Source of the DNA: Geobacter sulfurreducens PCA
GTDB lineage: Bacteria > Desulfobacterota > Desulfuromonadia > Geobacterales > Geobacteraceae
NCBI RefSeq assembly: GCF_000007985.2
Contig: NC_002939.5
Location: 180,001-212,000, forward strand
Direction: 5' to 3'
Length of the DNA: 32,000 bases
The position numbers and the translations under genes are program-made. This document shows positions 1,409-18,091 of the stretch, one piece after another; position 1 is the stretch's first letter; each line of letters starts with the position of its first letter. Under the pieces are notes generated by a model. The model saw nothing but the letters and a program-made list of their open reading frames with translations. It made no database searches and was not told the origin of the DNA.

Positions 1409-2764
1409 ATGAAAACGAGCGTTAAAACAATAAGCAAGAAACTACAGCACTCTTTGCAAAAAGGAATAACTGAATTGTCAGTTGCTGGCTATAAGTCAAT
1501 TGGCAGGCTACAAACAATTGATTTAAAGCCGCTTACAATATTATCTGGATCAAATAGCTCTGGTAAATCTAGTATAATGCAACCACTACTACTGTTAAAA
1601 CAAACATTAGAGGCCGGATATGATCCTGGTCCGTTATTGCTTAATGGACCAAACCTAAAGTATAATTCTGCAAGTGACATTTTGACTCAATGTAAGAACA
1701 ATAAACTGAATTCATTTTCTGTTGGAATTCGAGTTGCTAAAAATGAACTACTCACTACATCATATAAAAAACAGATTAATAAAGGGTTCAAAATAGACGA
1801 AATGACTTACGGTGATAAAAATGAAATTCATTTCAATCAAAGTATGTCGGCATCAGATACAGAAAGAATCGTACCAAACGAATTTAAAGATCTTTACAAA
1901 GTATTGCCTAAAAAATACAGGCCAGAGATAGAGTGGCATATTACGCGAAATAGGTGTTTTCTTGAGGCAGTACCAAAGTCTAAAGATGGTTCACAAATGG
2001 GACCAAACGTTTCGCCTAGTTCAATTGTCGCAAACGCAATACGAAATATTATTCATTTGCCTGGTCTGAGAGGAAACCCAGCAAGAACATATCCTATTAC
2101 AGCGGTGGGGAGAAGTTTTCCTGGTACGTTTGAAACTTATTCAGCGAGTATTCTTGCAGACTGGCAAGATAGTAAAAACAATAAATTGAGAGAGCTGTGT
2201 GCTGATCTTGAAAGATTAGGATTAACCTGGAAGGTTGCCGCAAGTCGAATTAATGACACTCAAGTTGAACTAAAAGTAGGCCGCCTGCCTCACGCTACTA
2301 GGGGTGGCGCAATGGATTTAGTCAATATTGCTGATGTTGGTTTTGGCGTTTCTCAGACGTTACCAGTTGTTGTTGCACTACATGTTGCAGCGCCAGGCCA
2401 AACAGTTTATCTCGAACAACCAGAAATTCATCTTCACCCGAGAGCACAAGCTGTAATGGCAGAAGTCATAACTGACGCAGTGAATAGAGGTGTAAAAGTA
2501 GTTGTTGAAACACACAGTTCAATATTTCTCTTGACCATGCAGTCATTGGTAGCGGAAGAGAAATTGCCTTCTGACGTCGTTAGCTTACATTGGTTTTCTC
2601 GGGATGATGACGGCCTTACGATTGTGACAAGTGCATCACTTGATAGCTCTGGAAGCTTTGGGCAATGGCCTGAAGACTTCGGTGCAGTAAATTTGGAGAT
2701 CGAAAGTAGATATTTAGATGCGTTCGAGTCTAAATTAGGAGTGGATTCTAGTGGCTGCAAATAA
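1409..2764 (+). CDS. ABC/AAA-type ATPase with a DUF3696-like C-terminus (AAA_15/AAA_21 class)
   Basis: ATG 1409 follows AAGGAG (1393-1398). Walker A is GSNSSGKSS (1547-1573). The Walker B region is VYLEQPEIHLHP, the H-loop is ETHSS, and the C-terminal motif is WPEDFG. GC is far below the surroundings (22/60 G+C at 1441-1500 by hand count). Confidence 0.8.
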   Translation: MKTSVKTISKKLQHSLQKGITELSVAGYKSIGRLQTIDLKPLTILSGSNSSGKSSIMQPLLLLKQTLEAGYDPGPLLLNGPNLKYNSASDILTQCKNNKLNSFSVGIRVAKNELLTTSYKKQINKGFKIDEMTYGDKNEIHFNQSMSASDTERIVPNEFKDLYKVLPKKYRPEIEWHITRNRCFLEAVPKSKDGSQMGPNVSPSSIVANAIRNIIHLPGLRGNPARTYPITAVGRSFPGTFETYSASILADWQDSKNNKLRELCADLERLGLTWKVAASRINDTQVELKVGRLPHATRGGAMDLVNIADVGFGVSQTLPVVVALHVAAPGQTVYLEQPEIHLHPRAQAVMAEVITDAVNRGVKVVVETHSSIFLLTMQSLVAEEKLPSDVVSLHWFSRDDDGLTIVTSASLDSSGSFGQWPEDFGAVNLEIESRYLDAFESKLGVDSSGCK

Positions 2765-3302
2765 ATCTCGTATTTTTGTCGTTGATACTTGTGTGGTTAG
2801 GTCAGCTGGGGGCGAAGATGCTGTTTTTCCGACTTCCAAACATTGTAGAGATTTCTTAAAAAATATTTTAACAATCTGCCACCGGGTAGTTCTTACATCA
2901 GAAATTGGAACTGAGTGGCATAAGCATGCTTCTGGATTTGCCAGAAAATGGCGAGTACAAATGGAATCGAGAAAAAAAATTTGTCGCCCAATAGTTGCTT
3001 CGAGACCTGAATTACTTAAAAAAATCAAGGATCTTCCCTTTTCAGAAGCTGAGCGGGAAGCATTAGAAAAAGATTTCATGTTAATCGAGGCTGCGTTATC
3101 AACTGATTGTTGCATTTCTTCGATGGACGAAATCGTAAAGCAACTGCTTGTAAAAGCTGCTTCAAATGTTGGCGAACTTAAACAAATTATTTGGGTTAAC
3201 CCCGATAAATCTCCTCAAGAGCTTACTGATTGGTTGGCAGAAGGTGCCTTACCATCAAAAGGTCCAACTTTGGGGGAAGGCAAAGGGGACGTTGCTTGCT
3301 AA
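2751..3302 (+). CDS. Hypothetical 183-aa protein, tentatively PIN-like; partner of the DUF3696-type ATPase
   Basis: GTG 2751 has AGGAG 9 nt upstream and overlaps the ATPase gene by 14 nt. It shares the same low GC (26/60 at 2881-2940). Acidic residues sit in PIN-like contexts (IFVVDTCVV, DFMLIEAAL, ISSMDE). I recognise no family with certainty. Confidence 0.6.
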   Translation: MAANKSRIFVVDTCVVRSAGGEDAVFPTSKHCRDFLKNILTICHRVVLTSEIGTEWHKHASGFARKWRVQMESRKKICRPIVASRPELLKKIKDLPFSEAEREALEKDFMLIEAALSTDCCISSMDEIVKQLLVKAASNVGELKQIIWVNPDKSPQELTDWLAEGALPSKGPTLGEGKGDVAC

Positions 3303-3329
3303 TTAGCTGACTCCTGTTACCCTTCCCCC

Positions 3330-3635
3330 ATGCCCCGCCAACCACGCCTCGACATACCAAATATCTTGCATCACGTCATCGTCCGCGGTATCGAACGCCG
3401 CGACATCTTTGACGATAACCACGACAGGGCGCGTTTCGTCTCCCGTCTGTCGGAACTTCTCACCCAGAGCGGCACCAGATGCTTTGCCTGGGCGCTCATG
3501 TCCAATCACTTCCATCTGCTGCTGATGCCCACCACGGTTCCCCTGGCGCAGACCATGCGCCGCCTGCTCACCGGCCATGCCGTTTATTTCAACCGCAGAC
3601 ACAAACGCACCGGCCATCTGTTCCAGAACCGCTAG
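3330..3635 (+). pseudogene. Truncated REP-associated tyrosine transposase (RAYT, IS200/IS605 Y1 family)
   Basis: MPRQPRLDIPNILHHVIVRGIERRDIF...SNHFHLLL (HUH motif)...RRHKRTGHLFQNR then stop. Family members continue with YKS..., which carries the catalytic Tyr, and that part is absent here. The gene is followed directly by a REP-like hairpin. Confidence 0.7.
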
Positions 3636-3880: not shown

Positions 3881-5047
3881 ATGTTTACGGAAGTATCGCC
3901 GCGCGGCGGCAGGCTGGTGGTACAGCAAAAAGGTGCAGAAGGTTACAGCGCTTTTGTGCCACATCCGCTACCGCCCAATCCACCGCTGCAGATCGACGAC
4001 GAAATGGGATGGCTGATGGAGCGGGCCAACCGTGCCTTGGGCCGGCTGGACGGCTGCACCTATACCCTCCCCAACCCTGACCTGTTCCTCTACATGTACG
4101 TGCGCAAGGAGGCGGTGCTAAGTTCCCAGATCGAGGGGACGCAGGCGTCATTGGACGATCTTCTGGAGTACGAAGGAGAGATTGAGGGTAAGAGCTCACC
4201 GGACGATATCAATGAGGTGTCCAATTATGTGGATGCCATGAATTACGGCCTGGAGCGGTTGCAAGAGCTGCCCCTGAGTCTGCGGCTGATCAAAGAGATT
4301 CATGCCCGGCTGATGGCCGGCATCAGGGGGGGGCACAAGAGTCCTGGCGAGTTCCGGACATCCCAGAACTGGATCGGTGGCACAAGGCCGGGTAATGCCG
4401 CCTTCGTGCCGCCGCCGGCCAATGAGGTAGTTACCTGTCTGGGCGACTTGGAGAAATTTCTGCACGATGAGTCAGTTCCGCCGCTGCTCAAGGCTGGCCT
4501 GGCCCATGCCCAGTTTGAGACCATCCACCCGTTTCTGGACGGCAACGGCAGAATGGGGCGGCTGTTGATAGCCTTTATTCTCTGCCATGATCAGGTACTG
4601 GAAAAGCCACTGCTCTACTTGAGTCTCTTTTTCAAAAAGCACCGCCAGGAGTACTACGAGCGGCTCAACGCGGTCCGGCGAGACGGCGACTGGGAGGGGT
4701 GGATCAAGTACTACCTGCAGGGGGTATACGAGATATCGAAACAGGCGACCGATGCCGCCAAAGCGATCATGGACCTGATGGCGCGGGACAGACAGAAGGT
4801 AACCGGCCTGGGCAAAGCAGCACCAACGGCGTTGGCTCTTCTGGAGATGCTCTATCGCAAGCCCTACGTCACCATCCCGTACGTGGCGCGGGAACTCCGA
4901 ATCAGCTCCCCGGCAGCAAGTAAGGCAGTGAACAATCTTGCGGCACTCGGCATTCTGATCGAGGTGAGCGGCAAGAAGCGCGATCGGGTGTTCCTGCACG
5001 AATCCTACCTGTCCATCATCCGGGAAGGGACTGAGCTATACCGGTAG
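3881..5047 (+). CDS. Fic family protein (AMPylase-type) with an N-terminal inhibitory motif and a C-terminal wHTH
   Basis: The Fic motif is HPFLDGNGRMGR. The inhibitory-helix motif [ST]xxxE[GN] appears as SSQIEG. The C-terminal ARELRISSPAASKAVNNLAALGIL looks like an HTH. Confidence 0.85.
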   Translation: MFTEVSPRGGRLVVQQKGAEGYSAFVPHPLPPNPPLQIDDEMGWLMERANRALGRLDGCTYTLPNPDLFLYMYVRKEAVLSSQIEGTQASLDDLLEYEGEIEGKSSPDDINEVSNYVDAMNYGLERLQELPLSLRLIKEIHARLMAGIRGGHKSPGEFRTSQNWIGGTRPGNAAFVPPPANEVVTCLGDLEKFLHDESVPPLLKAGLAHAQFETIHPFLDGNGRMGRLLIAFILCHDQVLEKPLLYLSLFFKKHRQEYYERLNAVRRDGDWEGWIKYYLQGVYEISKQATDAAKAIMDLMARDRQKVTGLGKAAPTALALLEMLYRKPYVTIPYVARELRISSPAASKAVNNLAALGILIEVSGKKRDRVFLHESYLSIIREGTELYR

Positions 5048-5099: not shown

Positions 5100-5112
5100 T
5101 AAAGTGCACCTG

Positions 5113-5146
5113 AACCGCAGGGAGACCCCCTGCGGTTTTCTTTTGG
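5113..5146 (+). terminator. Intrinsic-terminator hairpin 31 nt upstream of the ABC-F start. It is either the fic terminator or a leader attenuator.
   Basis: A 10-bp stem, AACCGCAGGG (5113-5122) paired with CCCTGCGGTT (5128-5137), is followed by TTCTTTTGG. It is near-identical to the hairpin at 21901-21931. Confidence 0.65.
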
Positions 5147-5168: not shown

Positions 5169-6806
5169 ATGATCAGTACCAGCAACATCAGCTTGGCCTA
5201 TGGCAAGCGGGTCATCTTCAAGGACGTGAACATCAAGTTCGTGCCCGGCAACTGCTACGGCCTGATCGGCGCCAACGGCGCCGGCAAGTCCACCTTCCTC
5301 AAGATTCTGGCGGGTCTGTCCGAGCCCGATTCCGGCACGGTCAGCGTCGGCCCGCGCGAGCGGATTTCATTCCTGAAGCAGGATCAGTTCGCCTTTGACG
5401 AGCACACGGTCTTCAATACCGTTATCATGGGCAATCCCCGGCTGTACGAGGTGATGCACGAGCGTGAGGCGATCTACGCCAAGGCGGAATTCTCCGAGGA
5501 GGACGGCATCCGCTCCGCCGAGCTGGAGGCTGAGTTTGCCGAGATGGACGGCTACGAGGCGGAGTCCGAGGCGGCGGTGCTGCTGAACGGCCTGGGGATT
5601 CCGGAAGAGCTGCGCCACAAGCAGATGAAGGAGCTGGAGGGGGGCGAGAAGGTGCGGGTGCTGCTGGCCCAGGCGCTGTTCGGCAACCCGGATGTGCTGC
5701 TGTTGGACGAGCCCACCAACCACCTGGACCTGAAGACCATCACCTGGCTGGAGGATTTCCTGGCCCGGTTCAATAACACGGTGATCGTGGTATCCCACGA
5801 CCGGCACTTTCTCAACCAGATCTGCACCCACGTGGCGGACATCGACTTCGGCCGCATCCAGGTCTACGTGGGCAACTACGATTTCTGGTACCAGGCCAGC
5901 CAGCTGACCCTGAAGCAGAAGCAGGACGAGAGCCGGAAGATCGCCGACAAGGCGGCCGAGCTGAAGGAGTTCATCCAGCGCTTCAGCTCCAACGCCTCCA
6001 AGGCCAAGCAGGCCACCTCCCGCAAGAAGCTGCTGGAGAAGCTGACCGTGGAGGAGATGCCGGTGTCGTCCCGCAAGTACCCCTACGTGGTCTTCAAGCC
6101 CGAGCGCCCCTGTGGCGACGTCATCCTGGAGATCAGCGGCCTCTCCAAGGAGATCGACGGGGTTCAAGTGTTCAAGGACCTGGACCTGATCGTGGGGAAA
6201 GGGGACAAGATCGCCTTTGTGGGCGCCAACAGCCTGGCCAAGACCACCCTGTTCCAGATCCTGGCCGGCGAGCTGGAGCCTGACGCGGGTTCGTTCCGCT
6301 GGGGGGTGACCATCACCAGCGCCTACTTCCCCAAGGAGAACGGCAGCTATTTCGACAACGACCTGAACCTGATCGAGTGGCTGGGGCAGTTTGCTCCGCC
6401 GACGGAAGGGGAGAGCTTTGCCCGGGGCTTTCTCGGTAGGATGCTCTTCTCCGGCGACGAGGCCACCAAGAAGGCCTCGGTCCTTTCCGGCGGCGAGCGG
6501 GTCCGCTGCATGCTGGCGCGGATGATGCTGCTGGGCGCCAATGCCCTGGTGCTGGACGAGCCGACCAACCACCTGGACCTGGAGTCCATCACCGCCCTGA
6601 ACAACGGCCTGATCGCCTTCAGCGAGGTGGTGCTCTTCAGCTCCCACGACCACGAGTTCGTCAACACCCTGGCCAACCGGATCGTGGAGTTCACCCCCGG
6701 TGGGATCATTGACCGGAAGATGACCTTCGACGACTACCTGGAGAGCGCCGAGGTGGCCGAAGAACGGGACCGGCTCTGCCAGGGGCACTGCGACCTGACG
6801 CTCTAG
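5169..6806 (+). CDS. ybiT: ABC-F family ATPase, YbiT-like
   Basis: 545 aa with two ABC cassettes (GANGAGKST and GANSLAKTT Walker A; LSGGE signatures; LLLDEPTNHLD twice). It is collinear with E. coli YbiT as I recall it (QDQFAF, ISHDRHFLN, RFSANASKAKQATSR). Confidence 0.85.
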   Translation: MISTSNISLAYGKRVIFKDVNIKFVPGNCYGLIGANGAGKSTFLKILAGLSEPDSGTVSVGPRERISFLKQDQFAFDEHTVFNTVIMGNPRLYEVMHEREAIYAKAEFSEEDGIRSAELEAEFAEMDGYEAESEAAVLLNGLGIPEELRHKQMKELEGGEKVRVLLAQALFGNPDVLLLDEPTNHLDLKTITWLEDFLARFNNTVIVVSHDRHFLNQICTHVADIDFGRIQVYVGNYDFWYQASQLTLKQKQDESRKIADKAAELKEFIQRFSSNASKAKQATSRKKLLEKLTVEEMPVSSRKYPYVVFKPERPCGDVILEISGLSKEIDGVQVFKDLDLIVGKGDKIAFVGANSLAKTTLFQILAGELEPDAGSFRWGVTITSAYFPKENGSYFDNDLNLIEWLGQFAPPTEGESFARGFLGRMLFSGDEATKKASVLSGGERVRCMLARMMLLGANALVLDEPTNHLDLESITALNNGLIAFSEVVLFSSHDHEFVNTLANRIVEFTPGGIIDRKMTFDDYLESAEVAEERDRLCQGHCDLTL

Positions 6807-16421: not shown

Positions 16422-17729
16422 TCAGATGGTCCTGCCGGGTTCGATCACGATGCCGTCTATGTCAAGGTCGATTTTCAACCGTTTGGCCGCATCCCTGGCC
16501 TTGCCGTCGTCACTGAACGGGCCGGCGATGATCCGGTAGCTCGAATCCTTCGACAGCACCCGGGCCGGGATCGGCGGCCCCTGATGGTTGATGATGGCGG
16601 CCATCCTCCGGGCTTCCATTTCGTCGCGCATGTCGCCGACCATGACATACCATGCGTCCAGCTTGAGCGCCGGCAGCTCCGGCCTGCCATACAGCGCTGC
16701 CGGGTGCTCGATTCTCAGGGGCGAGGCCGCCTCTTGCTCCGCTCCCGGCCTCAGCTCCAGAATAGGGACGGGAATCCCCCGGGCCTCGGCCTGGACTTGT
16801 TTGATCTTGTCCCAGTCAAGCGTTCGCGCCGATGCGCTTTCAAAGGATTTCAGCTTCGCATGGATCCGGGCCAGTTCACTGGTGCCCGAATCCTCCAGGG
16901 GGGTGTGGGCTTCCATGTAGAGCACGCCGTCGCGCTGGCCGATGAGATAGGGCTGATTGACTATGAGCACCGGGGTGTTGACCGCCGTATCCCGGAACAG
17001 CACCTCGATATGTTCCGGATAGAGCCTCATGCAGCCATTGGATGCCTTCAGGCCGATGCTGGCCGGTTTGTTGGTGCCGTGGATCAGGTAGCCCGACCTG
17101 CTCAGATAGAGCGCGTAGTCTCCCAAGGGGTTCTCCGGCCCCGGCGGTACCCGGGCAGGGAGAATGTCCCCCTTTTTCCGGTGATCTTCGGCGATGGAGG
17201 CGGGCACATACCAGGTCGGCCGGCTGGCCTTGCGCGCCACGCGTGTCGGTCCCTGGGGGGTGGGCCGCTCCTTGGTCCCGATTCCGACCGGGTAGGTCGA
17301 CACGGCCAGGGCTCCGCCGTTTTCCTTGAACTGAAAGAGCCGCATGGTGGCCAGGTTGATCACGATTCCCTTCCGGGGGGCATCCGGCAGGATGAAGTTC
17401 AGGGGCAGGGTAATGCGTTGGCCTGCCTTGGGCAGCCACACATCAACCCCCGGATTGGCTGCGCTGATGGCATTGATGCCCACGCTGAAGTGCCGCGCCA
17501 CATCCGGCAGCGTATCCCCCTCTTCGAGTTTGACCAGCCCCAGTCGGCCGATGACGTCAGTTCCCGGCGCAACCTGGAACCGGTTCCGTTCAAGTTCGCT
17601 TTCAGGGTGGACCGGTGAGAACCAGGCTTGCCGGGTGGCGGCACAGCCCGTGAGGGCAATGACGCAGATGCCCAGGACAGCGGAACGAAGCCAGTAGGCC
17701 ACGGTTGGCAGCGTAACGATTCTGCGCAT
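16422..17729 (-). CDS. L,D-transpeptidase (YkuD/ErfK/YbiS/YcfS family) with LysM and C-terminal SPOR domains; lipoprotein signal
   Basis: Signal and lipobox VIALTGCAA. LysM-like GDTLPDVARHFSVGINAISAANPGV. Catalytic YLIHGTNKPASIGLKASNGCMRLYPEHIEVLF. SPOR-like YVMVGDMRDEMEARRMAAII...YRIIAGPFSDDGKARDAAKRL. Confidence 0.85.
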   Translation of the reverse strand: MRRIVTLPTVAYWLRSAVLGICVIALTGCAATRQAWFSPVHPESELERNRFQVAPGTDVIGRLGLVKLEEGDTLPDVARHFSVGINAISAANPGVDVWLPKAGQRITLPLNFILPDAPRKGIVINLATMRLFQFKENGGALAVSTYPVGIGTKERPTPQGPTRVARKASRPTWYVPASIAEDHRKKGDILPARVPPGPENPLGDYALYLSRSGYLIHGTNKPASIGLKASNGCMRLYPEHIEVLFRDTAVNTPVLIVNQPYLIGQRDGVLYMEAHTPLEDSGTSELARIHAKLKSFESASARTLDWDKIKQVQAEARGIPVPILELRPGAEQEAASPLRIEHPAALYGRPELPALKLDAWYVMVGDMRDEMEARRMAAIINHQGPPIPARVLSKDSSYRIIAGPFSDDGKARDAAKRLKIDLDIDGIVIEPGRTI

Positions 17730-17756: not shown

Positions 17757-17870
17757 TGAAAATAAACAAGCCGGGGCCGAATATTCTGTGATAGTTCGGC
17801 AACCCGGCTGTCTCGGTGAGACCCTGTAGGCTTTCCGCCCCATCCTCGCGGATGGTTTAGTATTATCGTT
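17757..17870 (-). promoter_or_regulatory. GEMM-I-type cyclic-dinucleotide riboswitch, proximal copy (aptamer plus intrinsic terminator)
   Basis: The minus-strand RNA reads ACUAAACCAUCCGCGAGGAUGGGGCGGAAAGCCUACAGGGUCUCACCGAGACAGCCGGGUUGCCGAA. It matches the GEMM-I pattern: a GNRA-capped hairpin, G(C/G)AAAGCC, and CAGCCGGGUUGCCGA. The 3' aptamer strand can instead pair with UUCGGCCCCGGCU, which is followed by UUGUUUAUUUU. Confidence 0.8.
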
Positions 17871-17957
17871 TATCACCAGCAGTTGTCGTGCCGTGTTCGT
17901 TGTCGATGGGAACCGGCACGATCCGGTGCCTGTTCGGGCGCACCTCTCACTGACTCG

Positions 17958-18068
17958 CGCAACAAAAAAGCCGGGGCCGATATCCTGTGATATTTCGGCA
18001 ACCCGGCTGTCTCGGTGAGACCCTGTAGGCTTTCCGCCCCATTCTCGCGAATGGTTGAGTATTGTCGT
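17958..18068 (-). promoter_or_regulatory. GEMM-I-type cyclic-dinucleotide riboswitch, distal copy (aptamer plus intrinsic terminator)
   Basis: This is about 90% identical to the proximal copy: ACUCAACCAUUCGCGAGAAUGGGGCGGAAAGCCUACAGGGUCUCACCGAGACAGCCGGGUUGCCGAAAUAUCACAGGAUAUCGGCCCCGGCUUUUUUGUU. Confidence 0.8.
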
Positions 18069-18091
18069 CTATCGCAACTGATTTTTCCGCA

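Follow-up and report, generated by a model that had tools for sequence, protein, structure and literature searches.

A low-GC ATPase-PIN gene pair of Geobacter sulfurreducens as a putative distant relative of the anti-phage system HEC-03

The genome of Geobacter sulfurreducens PCA (contig NC_002939.5 of assembly GCF_000007985.2) contains a cassette of two genes, which code for an ATPase of the ATP-binding cassette (ABC) type of 451 amino acids (aa) and for a small PIN-like protein of 183 aa, and which are referred to here as open reading frames 1 and 2 (ORF1 and ORF2). All coordinates refer to the analysed window, the whole stretch of 32,000 nucleotides (nt) from positions 180,001 to 212,000 of the forward strand, in which the cassette occupies positions 1409–3302. 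We regard it as probable, at roughly 0.6, that the cassette is a horizontally acquired two-gene anti-phage module of the HEC-03 type, which would act in the manner of an abortive infection through cleavage of RNA by the PIN protein. HEC-03 (Hma-embedded candidate 03) consists of an ABC ATPase and a VapC-like PIN protein (Payne et al., preprint, bioRxiv 10.1101/2024.01.29.577857), lowers phage plaquing in E. coli only if both genes are present, and is toxic on induction (bioRxiv 10.1101/2024.01.29.577857). As judged from sequence comparison, ORF1 and ORF2 appear to represent a separate family, which is sister to or a distant relative of HEC-03 as the closest known system. The analysis directly supports the anatomy of the pair and the obligate association of its genes, and it shows that the catalytic motifs of both proteins are intact and that both are remotely homologous to the HEC-03 pair.

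Both genes with their motifs, the neighbouring TumE, wHTH, transposase and SoFic genes, and the terminator at 576–610 are located on the forward strand. ORF1 (1409–2764) extends from an ATG at 1409 to a TAA at 2762–2764 and is preceded by a Shine-Dalgarno sequence read from the DNA (AAGGAG, 1393–1398) 10 nt 5' of the start codon; translation might alternatively begin at GTG 1388, although ATG 1409 agrees with the N-termini of the aligned homologues. ORF2 (2751–3302) starts with GTG 2751, 9 nt behind an AGGAG (2737–2741) lying within the 3' end of ORF1, and overlaps the latter by 14 nt between its own start and the stop of ORF1 (2751–2764), an arrangement compatible with translational coupling. 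A preliminary description of this DNA, made from the letters and their reading frames, had reported the same co-directional frames, overlap, ribosome-binding site and stop codon, all of which were confirmed on the raw sequence, and its hand counts of G+C proved exact (22/60 at 1441–1500, 26/60 at 2881–2940, and 39/60 at 5281–5340). The foreign composition it had noted is evident from a GC content of 39.6% in the cassette versus 61.9% in the remainder of the window, and from a GC content at third codon positions (GC3) of 0.288 in ORF1 and in ORF2 versus 0.73–0.92 in the flanking winged helix-turn-helix (wHTH), SoFic and ABC-F genes; outside the island containing these genes, no 1894-nt stretch of the window falls below 50% GC. 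A promoter and terminator scan of the window indicated neither a sigma-70-like promoter directly 5' of ORF1 nor a terminator directly 3' of ORF2.

The ATPase-PIN pair is a self-contained two-gene module with near-obligate pairing, because the two genes occur together consistently, their junctions are tight, and no third gene is conserved with them. A scan of species-representative genomes with an 8-sequence alignment of the ORF2 family retrieved ten loci from six phyla, in all of which the gene directly upstream, on the same strand, codes for an ORF1 homologue with about 50% identity; these loci come from Acidobacteriota, Blastocatellia, Anaerolineae/Chloroflexi, Thermomicrobiales, Planctomycetota and Oscillatoria. 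Seeding with the ORF1 family yielded 80 loci from metagenome contigs (47–56% identity), and an ORF2-family gene follows right after the ATPase gene in 74 of the 76 loci with at least 200 nt downstream of it. Among the viral and prophage contigs of IMG/VR, a PIN gene is present downstream of 11 of 12 close ATPase genes, while the sequence of the remaining locus breaks off at the stop codon of the ATPase gene. The co-occurrence across genomes, which had been proposed as a check in the preliminary description, is thus evident in all three samples. The tight coupling it had claimed is likewise general, as nearly all of the approximately 85 homologous loci have a distance between −14 and +7 nt from ATPase stop to PIN start, with a mode of −4 (ATGA overlap). 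All-against-all clustering of the flanking ORFs on both strands of 11 and then about 90 loci revealed no conserved third gene: the largest neighbour cluster comprised 5 of the approximately 46 loci with enough flank, and the antisense "clusters" turned out to be shadows of the ATPase and PIN genes. The main hosts of pairs of this type are Acidobacteriota, Chloroflexota, Planctomycetota, Cyanobacteria, Myxococcota and Geobacter, and the pairs also occur on prophage-like contigs. The two exceptions from the metagenomes (L045, 320–1747; L062, 185–1555) are ATPase genes without a PIN gene from the same diverged sublineage, which could represent a partner loss or a solo-ATPase variant; in L062, an ORF resembling alpha/beta-hydrolases is located 300 nt after the solo ATPase gene.

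ORF1 belongs to the ABC ATPases that resemble SMC and PtuA, and its C-terminal tail is of the DUF3696 type. It matches the Pfam families AAA_15 (1.7e-21) and AAA_21 (4.2e-18), while DUF3696 itself stays below threshold (E = 0.001, 19.7 bits versus a curated cut-off of 22); the tail is still assigned to this type by homology, as both the HEC-03 ATPase and P0121 contain PF12476 (DUF3696). The AlphaFold2 (AF2) model of ORF1 (predicted template modelling score, pTM, 0.81) retrieved 224 Foldseek matches at E ≤ 1e-3, including an SMC head (4i99, 1.1e-12), PtuA (8eea, 2.6e-11; also 8ee4), OLD (6p74, 1.5e-9), a retron PtuA (9n6b) and Rad50. The combination of AAA_15/AAA_21 with a DUF3696-type tail, as assigned in the preliminary description, therefore agrees with the Pfam matches and the ABC fold of the model, with the reservation of the sub-threshold DUF3696 score. 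The best matching models of the defence database PADLOC are those of NsnB (4.8e-54), the HEC-03 ATPase (4.3e-40), PDC-M55A (1.8e-37) and AriA (4.6e-25), followed by HEC-01A (4.6e-16), PD-T4-4_A (4.8e-13), Mad3 (1.2e-10) and GajA (3.9e-10). Identical proteins are recorded as AAR33500.1 (PCA), ADI83003.1, AJY69900.1 and others, and occur on about 130 contigs.

The Walker A, Walker B, signature and H-loop motifs of an ABC ATPase are all recognizable in ORF1, some of them in derived form. The Walker A motif or P-loop GSNSSGKSS (1547–1573, residues 47–55) shows invariant G47, N49, S50, S51, G52, K53, S54 and S55 in the alignment of homologues. The loop HLPGLRGNP (2054–2080, residues 216–224; H216, P218, G219, L220, R221, G222 and N223 invariant) has an arginine in place of the glutamine of the ABC Q-loop and aligns to GPLREPP of the HEC-03 ATPase. 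In the derived ABC signature DVGFGVSQ (2333–2356, residues 309–316; D309, G311, F312, G313 and S315 invariant), GxG replaces SGG. The Walker B and D-loop region TVYLEQPEIHLHP (2402–2440, residues 332–344) contains the invariant E336 as part of an E-Q dyad, and its motif reads LEQPEIHLHP without variation across the homologues. It is followed by the H-loop ETHS (2507–2518, residues 367–370; E367, T368 and S370 invariant) and the DUF3696-type C-terminal module (2567–2749, residues ~387–447), which includes the motif WPEDF (2666–2680) and a terminal helix. The residues W420, P421, E422, D423 and F424 of this motif are invariant and align to WPDSF of the HEC-03 ATPase; by analogy to related systems, the module is predicted to serve as docking site for the PIN partner. 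The motifs GSNSSGKSS, VYLEQPEIHLHP, ETHSS and WPEDFG, which had been read off beforehand, are all present in the translation. By far the most variable part of the protein is Insert-1 (1709–2008, residues ~101–200), which cannot be aligned with the HEC-03 ATPase and in which the frequency of the commonest residue among 90 ORF1 homologues is 0.23–0.38, versus 0.75–0.86 in the catalytic core; it is a candidate for the trigger-sensing surface.

ORF2 is predicted to be a single-domain nuclease of the PIN family. Its AF2 model is of high quality (pLDDT 91.8, a predicted score of the local distance difference test; pTM 0.87) and agrees with the Rossmann-like alpha/beta/alpha architecture and parallel sheet of PIN domains, and conservation combined with the modelled structure points to a catalytic tetrad of D12 (2784–2786), E55 (2913–2915), D108 (3072–3074) and D126 (3126–3128). 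D12 follows strand beta1 (residues 8–11), and E55 belongs to the helix that comes after beta2; D108 sits at the N-terminal end of the "D..IEAA" helix (109–116), and D126 is found behind the strand 121–123. Among 75 ORF2 homologues from the loci, these residues are kept in 71/72 (D12), 71/74 (E55), 73/73 (D108) and 73/73 (D126) sequences. The tetrad of VapC proteins is found at approximately D5, E42, D98 and D117, and the model suggests that ORF2 carries the canonical D-E-D-D of PIN domains with VapC-like spacing and at the canonical positions of the secondary structure. The best fold match in the PDB is HARP (7og5; Foldseek E = 2.3e-3, probability 1.0), and PIN proteins dominate the top 35 matches, which also contain VapC (7vwo with a TM score of 0.51, 3zvk and 4chg), Nob1 (2lcq), ZC3H12C (7ndi) and PAE2754 (1v8o). 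A helical insertion as in HARP was ruled out, with the 53 residues between E55 and D108 corresponding to the normal spacing of VapC. A Foldseek comparison of the model with the viral structures of BFVD gave nothing informative (best E = 0.03, a DUF1308 protein).

At the sequence level, ORF2 itself has no match in Pfam, NCBIfam or PHROGs, no usable one among the PDB sequences either as a single sequence or as a 30-sequence profile, and nothing meaningful among the PADLOC models. Of the 60 relatives scanned against Pfam, PIN_3 was matched by two (best 4.7e-5), PIN_12 by two (4.5e-4), PIN_10 by three, PIN by two and NYN by one. The protein is identical to ADN78310.1 and AJY69901.1 and is named "PIN domain-containing protein" in UniRef. 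The PIN-like character surmised in the preliminary description, whose motifs IFVVDTCVV, DFMLIEAAL and ISSMDE all occur in the translation, is thus supported by the Foldseek matches, the weak Pfam matches of the family, the conserved tetrad and the UniRef name. A word-indexed search yielded 64 clusters for the family and an exhaustive profile search 2,308 representatives at E ≤ 1e-3, the representatives being clusters at 50% identity; the top 150 of them are all single-domain proteins of 168–233 aa.

The closest counterpart of this pair is HEC-03 of Pseudomonas cichorii, which consists of WP_025259138.1, annotated as "DUF3696 domain-containing protein" (322707–324092), and WP_025259137.1 (324079–324552; bioRxiv 10.1101/2024.01.29.577857, Table S2). 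In both systems the ATPase gene comes first and that of a small single-domain PIN protein second, with the same overlap of 14 nt and without any further obligatory gene in the operon, and both are found in variable contexts, HEC-03 not always being embedded in Hma. The ATPases share the motifs DVGFGVSQ, EQPEIHLHP, E[ST]HS and WP[ED]xF. A BLASTP alignment of ORF1 with the HEC-03 ATPase shows 49% identity over a 79-aa block of Walker B and signature motifs, and the comparison of the ORF1 family with the full ATPase of P. cichorii by hhalign extends over 213 columns from the arginine loop through WPxxF (99.8%, E = 1.7e-27). The match of ORF1 to the PADLOC model PDLC04148 of the HEC-03 ATPase (4.3e-40) is partial, in two stretches, and reaches 136 bits versus 182 bits for NsnB; since NsnB scores higher, ORF1 should not be regarded as a close member of the HEC-03 ATPases. 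For the PIN proteins, the profile of the ORF2 family (60 sequences) aligns with that of the HEC-03 PIN family (30 sequences) over the N-terminal 88 columns (hhalign, 93.2%, E = 2.8e-7). The two families have the motifs VV[DE]T.V..A.G, C..FL and E[WY]..H.S in common, with the first Asp/Glu, a conserved Cys and a helix aligned, and both contain a D/E-E-D-D tetrad; the HEC-03 family is recognized by Pfam as PIN in 17 and as PIN_3 in 12 of its 30 sequences. The earlier statement that ORF2 matches no family is therefore superseded, as it appears to be a remote homologue of the HEC-03 PIN protein.

Several features separate the two groups. The inserts of the ATPases (residues ~90–205) cannot be aligned with each other, and the HEC-03 PIN protein has 157 aa with a C-terminal CPxHGC, whereas ORF2 has 183 aa, lacks this motif and carries a tail with W148-x-N-P and WL..GA instead. 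HEC-03 is found in Pseudomonas and Burkholderia, while the ORF1/ORF2 family occurs mainly in environmental phyla and Geobacter. Anti-phage activity that depends on both genes was demonstrated for the P. cichorii pair in E. coli and is a prediction for the ORF1/ORF2 family. The preliminary description of the pair as uncharacterised does not hold as regards the kind of system: the architecture is that of HEC-03, which has been named, validated and included in PADLOC-DB v2, although ORF2 is missed by the PADLOC model of the HEC-03 PIN protein. This result touches one of the conditions that the description itself had set for its refutation, namely a mapping of the pair to a named system. Note that the names of the PADLOC models PDLC04147 and PDLC04148 appear to be swapped relative to the preprint, as the "HEC-03B" model of 458 positions matches the ATPase, while the preprint designates the ATPase as HEC-03A and the PIN protein as HEC-03B (bioRxiv 10.1101/2024.01.29.577857).

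A second system with an ATPase of this type is Menshen (NsnABC), which was reportedly described by Millman et al. 2022. It consists of a sensor with ParB-DUF262 and ParBDB parts whose gene lies directly upstream of that of the ATPase (NsnA), an ATPase of AAA_15 plus DUF3696 with the variants R-for-Q, GxG-for-SGG and E-N in Walker B (NsnB), and a protein combining an N-terminal inactive PIN domain (inPIN) with a C-terminal nuclease of the BECR, Toprim or PLD type (NsnC; Li et al., NAR 2025, PMC12065111). All 35 inPIN families lack the D-E-D-D tetrad, and AlphaFold 3 (AF3) showed the inPIN domain of NsnC held between a pair of DUF3696 tails in a tetramer of NsnB in 23 of 24 models (PMC12065111). 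The mining for Menshen in that study was seeded on DUF262, and HEC-03 is not mentioned there (PMC12065111); because of this seeding, ATPase-PIN pairs without NsnA were outside its scope. NsnB and ORF1 resemble each other in the AAA_15 plus DUF3696-type architecture, the Arg for the Q-loop Gln, the GxG and the Walker B Glu followed by an amide; moreover, the partner encoded downstream of NsnB also starts with a PIN-like domain, and NsnB is the best PADLOC match of ORF1. As a control, we used a genuine Menshen locus (L130) that codes for NsnA (GmrSD_N, 1.6e-24), NsnB and NsnC (PADLOC, 1.6e-72) in this order. The ORF1 family aligns with NsnB of this locus over only the C-terminal 122 columns (hhalign, 99.6%, E = 1.9e-23), and the motifs GAGMS, ENPEIQLHP and FPLGFF of NsnB stand against GFGVSQ, EQPEIHLHP and WPEDF of ORF1. 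The ORF2 family shows no similarity to its NsnC (E = 0.38), nor does ORF2 match any PADLOC model for NsnC; unlike NsnC, it is a single-domain protein that keeps the D-E-D-D and lacks a C-terminal effector. No gene for NsnA occurs near the cassette, the upstream genes in the window being those of TumE and a wHTH protein, and among the approximately 46 loci whose upstream sequence covers at least 1.5 kb, no DUF262/GmrSD_N gene is conserved. With no NsnA and an ORF2 unrelated to NsnC, membership in Menshen was ruled out, and the sequence comparisons place the pair closest to HEC-03 and at a greater distance from the NsnB-NsnC module.

The principle of an oligomeric ABC ATPase that binds and regulates a small nuclease effector is also shared by PARIS (AriA-AriB), Septu (PtuA-PtuB), HEC-01, Mad3/Mad4 of MADS, PD-T4-4 and Gabija. 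However, the effectors of these systems are of the Toprim/DUF4435, HNH or DUF4276 types rather than PIN proteins as ORF2, and their ATPases resemble ORF1 only in the ABC core and have other tails and docking surfaces. The VapBC systems share a VapC-like PIN effector with the canonical acidic tetrad, as reflected in the fold matches of ORF2 to 7vwo, 3zvk and 4chg, but the pair described here contains no small DNA-binding antitoxin of the VapB type, its upstream partner being the 451-aa ABC ATPase, and none of the curated PIN models of Pfam recognizes ORF2 above its threshold. The PADLOC check suggested in the preliminary description gave a divided result, with ORF1 matching NsnB, the HEC-03 ATPase and PDC-M55A, and ORF2 matching nothing meaningful. 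As a separate observation, the IMG/VR contigs L105–L135 contain more distant DUF3696-like ATPases of 500–667 aa (e.g., L106, 2817–5692; L111, 4923–7935; L122, 4953–7583), each followed by a protein of 295–368 aa whose gene overlaps or starts within about 15 nt. These partners have no Pfam match and no PADLOC match except for a weak one to PDC-M55B in L117 (9.8e-6), and may represent further unexplored partner families of the same ATPase scaffold on phage and prophage contigs.

In G. sulfurreducens, the cassette is part of a small island of defence and toxin-antitoxin (TA) genes (TumE pair, ATPase-PIN, SoFic), which lies between dapL and an ABC-F gene. The order on the contigs L138–L140, where it is intact, is dapA, dapB, aminotransferase, TumE, wHTH, ATPase, PIN, Y1_Tnp remnant, SoFic and ABC-F, and strong terminators at 576–610, an intrinsic one after the aminotransferase gene, and at 5112–5138 bracket the island. 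The genes for the TumE toxin (656–982; Pfam TumE, 9.4e-12) and a wHTH protein of the HVO_A0114/MarR type (979–1341; Pfam HVO_A0114, 1.5e-22) overlap by 4 nt and form a TA-like pair, which is separated from the cassette by 67 nt without a terminator and is not conserved beside it elsewhere. The wHTH protein weakly resembles the C-terminal HTH of CasR/Csa3 (PADLOC, ~5e-6). On the other side follow a truncated transposase remnant of the IS200/Y1 type, similar to REP-associated tyrosine transposases (RAYT; 3330–3635; Pfam Y1_Tnp, 7e-9, profile positions 4–98 of 121), and the gene for the Fic AMPylase SoFic (3881–5047; PADLOC SoFic, 9e-130; Pfam Fic_N and Fic), a defence gene. These neighbours had been correctly described beforehand. 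In strain AM-1 (CP010430; L137, 4183–6879), an element of the IS21 type splits SoFic, with IstB at L137 4183–4932 and the last 84 aa of SoFic left.

Two repeats mark the surroundings of the cassette. A perfect tandem duplication CCCGGAACT-CCCGGAACT at 1361–1378 lies in the GC-rich spacer, at the left composition boundary just 5' of the low-GC cassette, and an imperfect 19-nt inverted repeat (3271–3289 and 3312–3330; 79% complementary, 22-nt spacer) spans the stop codon of ORF2 and extends as far as the start codon of the transposase remnant; this inverted repeat could be a hairpin resembling repetitive extragenic palindromic (REP) elements or a weak terminator. No convincing target-site duplications or terminal repeats flank the cassette. 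The idea of a strain-specific island was ruled out, as proteins identical to ORF1 and ORF2 are encoded in PCA, KN400 and AM-1 and on about 130 contigs. Elsewhere in the window, two tandem c-di-GMP-I (GEMM-I) riboswitch aptamers are located on the minus strand (17795–17871 and 17994–18070; with 47.4 and 41.1 bits, both exceed the gathering score of Rfam). They are situated upstream of a gene on the same strand (16422–17729), whose product is a YkuD L,D-transpeptidase that also contains LysM and SPOR domains.

The way in which such a module may work can be outlined as follows. An oligomer of the ORF1 ATPase would hold the ORF2 nuclease inactive via the DUF3696/WPEDF module until ORF1 recognizes an infection cue, probably through the hypervariable Insert-1, and changes its nucleotide state. 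ATP binding or hydrolysis would then release or activate the PIN domain, whose D-E-D-D metal site would cleave RNA, most likely tRNA, rRNA or mRNA, and the infected cell would stop growing. We infer how the two proteins dock, what acts as the sensor, which substrate is cleaved and that the pair serves in defence from analogy with the genetics of HEC-03, the AF3 models of NsnB-NsnC, and the structures of Septu and PARIS; the roles of the ATPase as sensor and the PIN protein as effector, already proposed in the preliminary description, likewise are drawn from such analogies.

Some of the results speak against an anti-phage module of the HEC-03 type and have to be weighed here. The relation of ORF2 to the HEC-03 PIN protein appears to be one of remote homology, seen only by profile-profile comparison: BLASTP found no match between the two, the PADLOC model PDLC04147 of the HEC-03 PIN protein does not match ORF2 at E ≤ 0.1, so that the pair would not be called HEC-03 by PADLOC, and the same model matches only 2 of 60 ORF2 relatives at E of about 0.005 (0.0047). 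The structural matches of ORF2 to PIN folds are weak as well, with every E-value above 1e-3, 2.3e-3 as the best, and TM scores of 0.43–0.51. As for the surroundings, the 106 ORFs immediately beside the pair in about 60 loci, when compared with PADLOC and Pfam, were mostly housekeeping genes (thioredoxins, oxidases, transporters, regulators) with few restriction-modification (R-M) genes among them, although the count of R-M and defence neighbours is a lower bound, some of the picked ORFs probably being spurious antisense frames in high-GC contigs. The pair lies between hsdR and hsdM in L005, homologues of both hsd genes are near the pair in L050 and L071, and a type I specificity subunit precedes a distant relative of the pair in L134, but no general enrichment in defence islands was found across these approximately 60 other loci. 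Guilt by association is therefore weak, and the defence-island context postulated earlier applies to G. sulfurreducens with its TumE pair and SoFic, but not to the other loci with their mostly housekeeping neighbours. In addition, tblastn detected no ORF2 homologues in the plasmids of PLSDB or the phages of INPHARED, and the island is present in every sampled G. sulfurreducens contig sharing the adjacent ABC-F gene and is thus fixed rather than variably present. Because all these contigs carry the island, the horizontal acquisition of the cassette, which is covered jointly with the HEC-03-type defence function by the probability given above, rests on composition and patchy phyletic spread rather than on presence/absence polymorphism. 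The PIN-like superfamily also includes 5' flap DNA nucleases, and for this reason RNA as the substrate of ORF2 has to be regarded as an assumption.

The last point leads to an alternative in which an SMC/Rad50-like ATPase recognizes ends or structures of plasmid or phage DNA and ORF2 is a FEN-type or other DNA nuclease, resulting in a restriction-like activity. The membership of flap nucleases in the superfamily and the top structural relatives of ORF1, i.e., the heads of the DNA-binding SMC, Rad50, OLD and PtuA proteins, would agree with it, and the ATPase-nuclease systems Septu and Gabija act on DNA (PMC12065111). However, the best fold matches of ORF2 are RNases (HARP RNase P, VapC, Nob1, Regnase) instead of FEN or Exo proteins, the weak Pfam matches go to the VapC-type PIN_3 and PIN, and the 183-aa protein lacks the helical arch and H3TH of FEN nucleases in its predicted secondary structure. 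The PIN protein of HEC-03 was also likened to VapC by its authors (bioRxiv 10.1101/2024.01.29.577857), and we consider a DNA target quite unlikely. Another possibility, which appears unlikely to us, is a selfish TA-like addiction module without a dedicated anti-phage role, with ORF2 as VapC-like toxin and ORF1 as large proteinaceous antitoxin or regulator. The order of the genes with the ATPase first, the 451-aa ABC ATPase with its fully conserved catalytic apparatus, and the hypervariable insert are atypical of an antitoxin, and the homologous HEC-03 pair does defend against phage; on the other hand, the PIN/VapC-like fold and the predicted intact active site of ORF2, the tight two-gene operon, the toxicity of HEC-03 on induction and the TumE pair adjoining the cassette are all compatible with such a module, and the highly variable, mostly non-defence neighbourhoods fit a self-sufficient mobile pair. 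This explanation overlaps with a defence function in any case, because many TA-like modules are defence systems.

The two further explanations considered are very improbable. A decayed Menshen system, from which the sensor NsnA and the half of NsnC with the effector would have disappeared, is effectively refuted: while NsnB is the best PADLOC match of ORF1 (4.8e-54), combines AAA_15 with DUF3696, and is accompanied by an NsnC starting with a PIN-like domain (PMC12065111), the lack of a conserved third gene in about 95 loci points to a stable state rather than decay, and ORF2 has kept the D-E-D-D that is absent from all 35 inPIN families. Neither the comparison of the ORF2 family with a genuine NsnC (E = 0.38) nor PADLOC indicates a relation to NsnC, and the alignment with NsnB covers only 122 columns, with differing signature, Walker B and tail motifs that the HEC-03 ATPase shares with ORF1. 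A housekeeping function in RNA processing, in which a protein-only RNase P similar to HARP or a nuclease of rRNA maturation similar to Nob1 would work with an ATPase chaperone, might be suspected from the presence of HARP, a minimal protein-only RNase P, and Nob1 among the top Foldseek matches of ORF2. However, these fold matches have weak E-values and would suit VapC just as well, and a GC3 of 0.29 in a genome of 62% GC, the sporadic spread across phyla and prophage contigs in variable context, the obligate partnership with a defence-type ABC ATPase and the homology to HEC-03 all argue against a housekeeping role.

The combination of an ABC ATPase with a PIN protein as such is already known as a named and validated architecture from HEC-03, and ORF2 already bears the name of a PIN protein in public annotation. 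The new element is the apparent existence of a separate and very large family (~2,300 clusters at 50% identity), which as judged by profile searches is mainly distributed over environmental phyla and prophage-like contigs and is positioned evolutionarily between HEC-03 and the NsnBC module of Menshen. If this family defends against phages, it would add a large unannotated group to the class of systems built from ABC ATPases and nucleases, and since the models of PADLOC, Pfam and NCBIfam miss the effector, censuses of defence systems count too few of its members in the microbiomes of soils and sediments. In G. sulfurreducens, which serves as a model of electroactive bacteria, the analysis flags a small island of defence and TA genes. 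It is a tentative and rather doubtful idea that the family constitutes an anti-phage system in its own right, widespread among environmental phyla, as well as the ancestral "active-PIN" state of the DUF3696-ATPase/PIN module. If so, HEC-03 and the ORF1/ORF2 clade would have kept the catalytic PIN domain as effector, with Insert-1 of the ATPase as phage sensor in the two-gene form, and Menshen would have arisen from such a pair by inactivation of the PIN domain to a docking or RNA-binding adaptor (inPIN), fusion of new nucleases to it, and recruitment of NsnA as external sensor. The DUF3696 ATPase scaffold lends itself to a mechanistic comparison, since its partner appears to be a catalytically intact PIN protein in ORF1/ORF2 as well as in HEC-03 but an inactivated PIN adaptor in Menshen (NsnC), and these two kinds of pairing suggest a route from a two-gene to a three-gene system.

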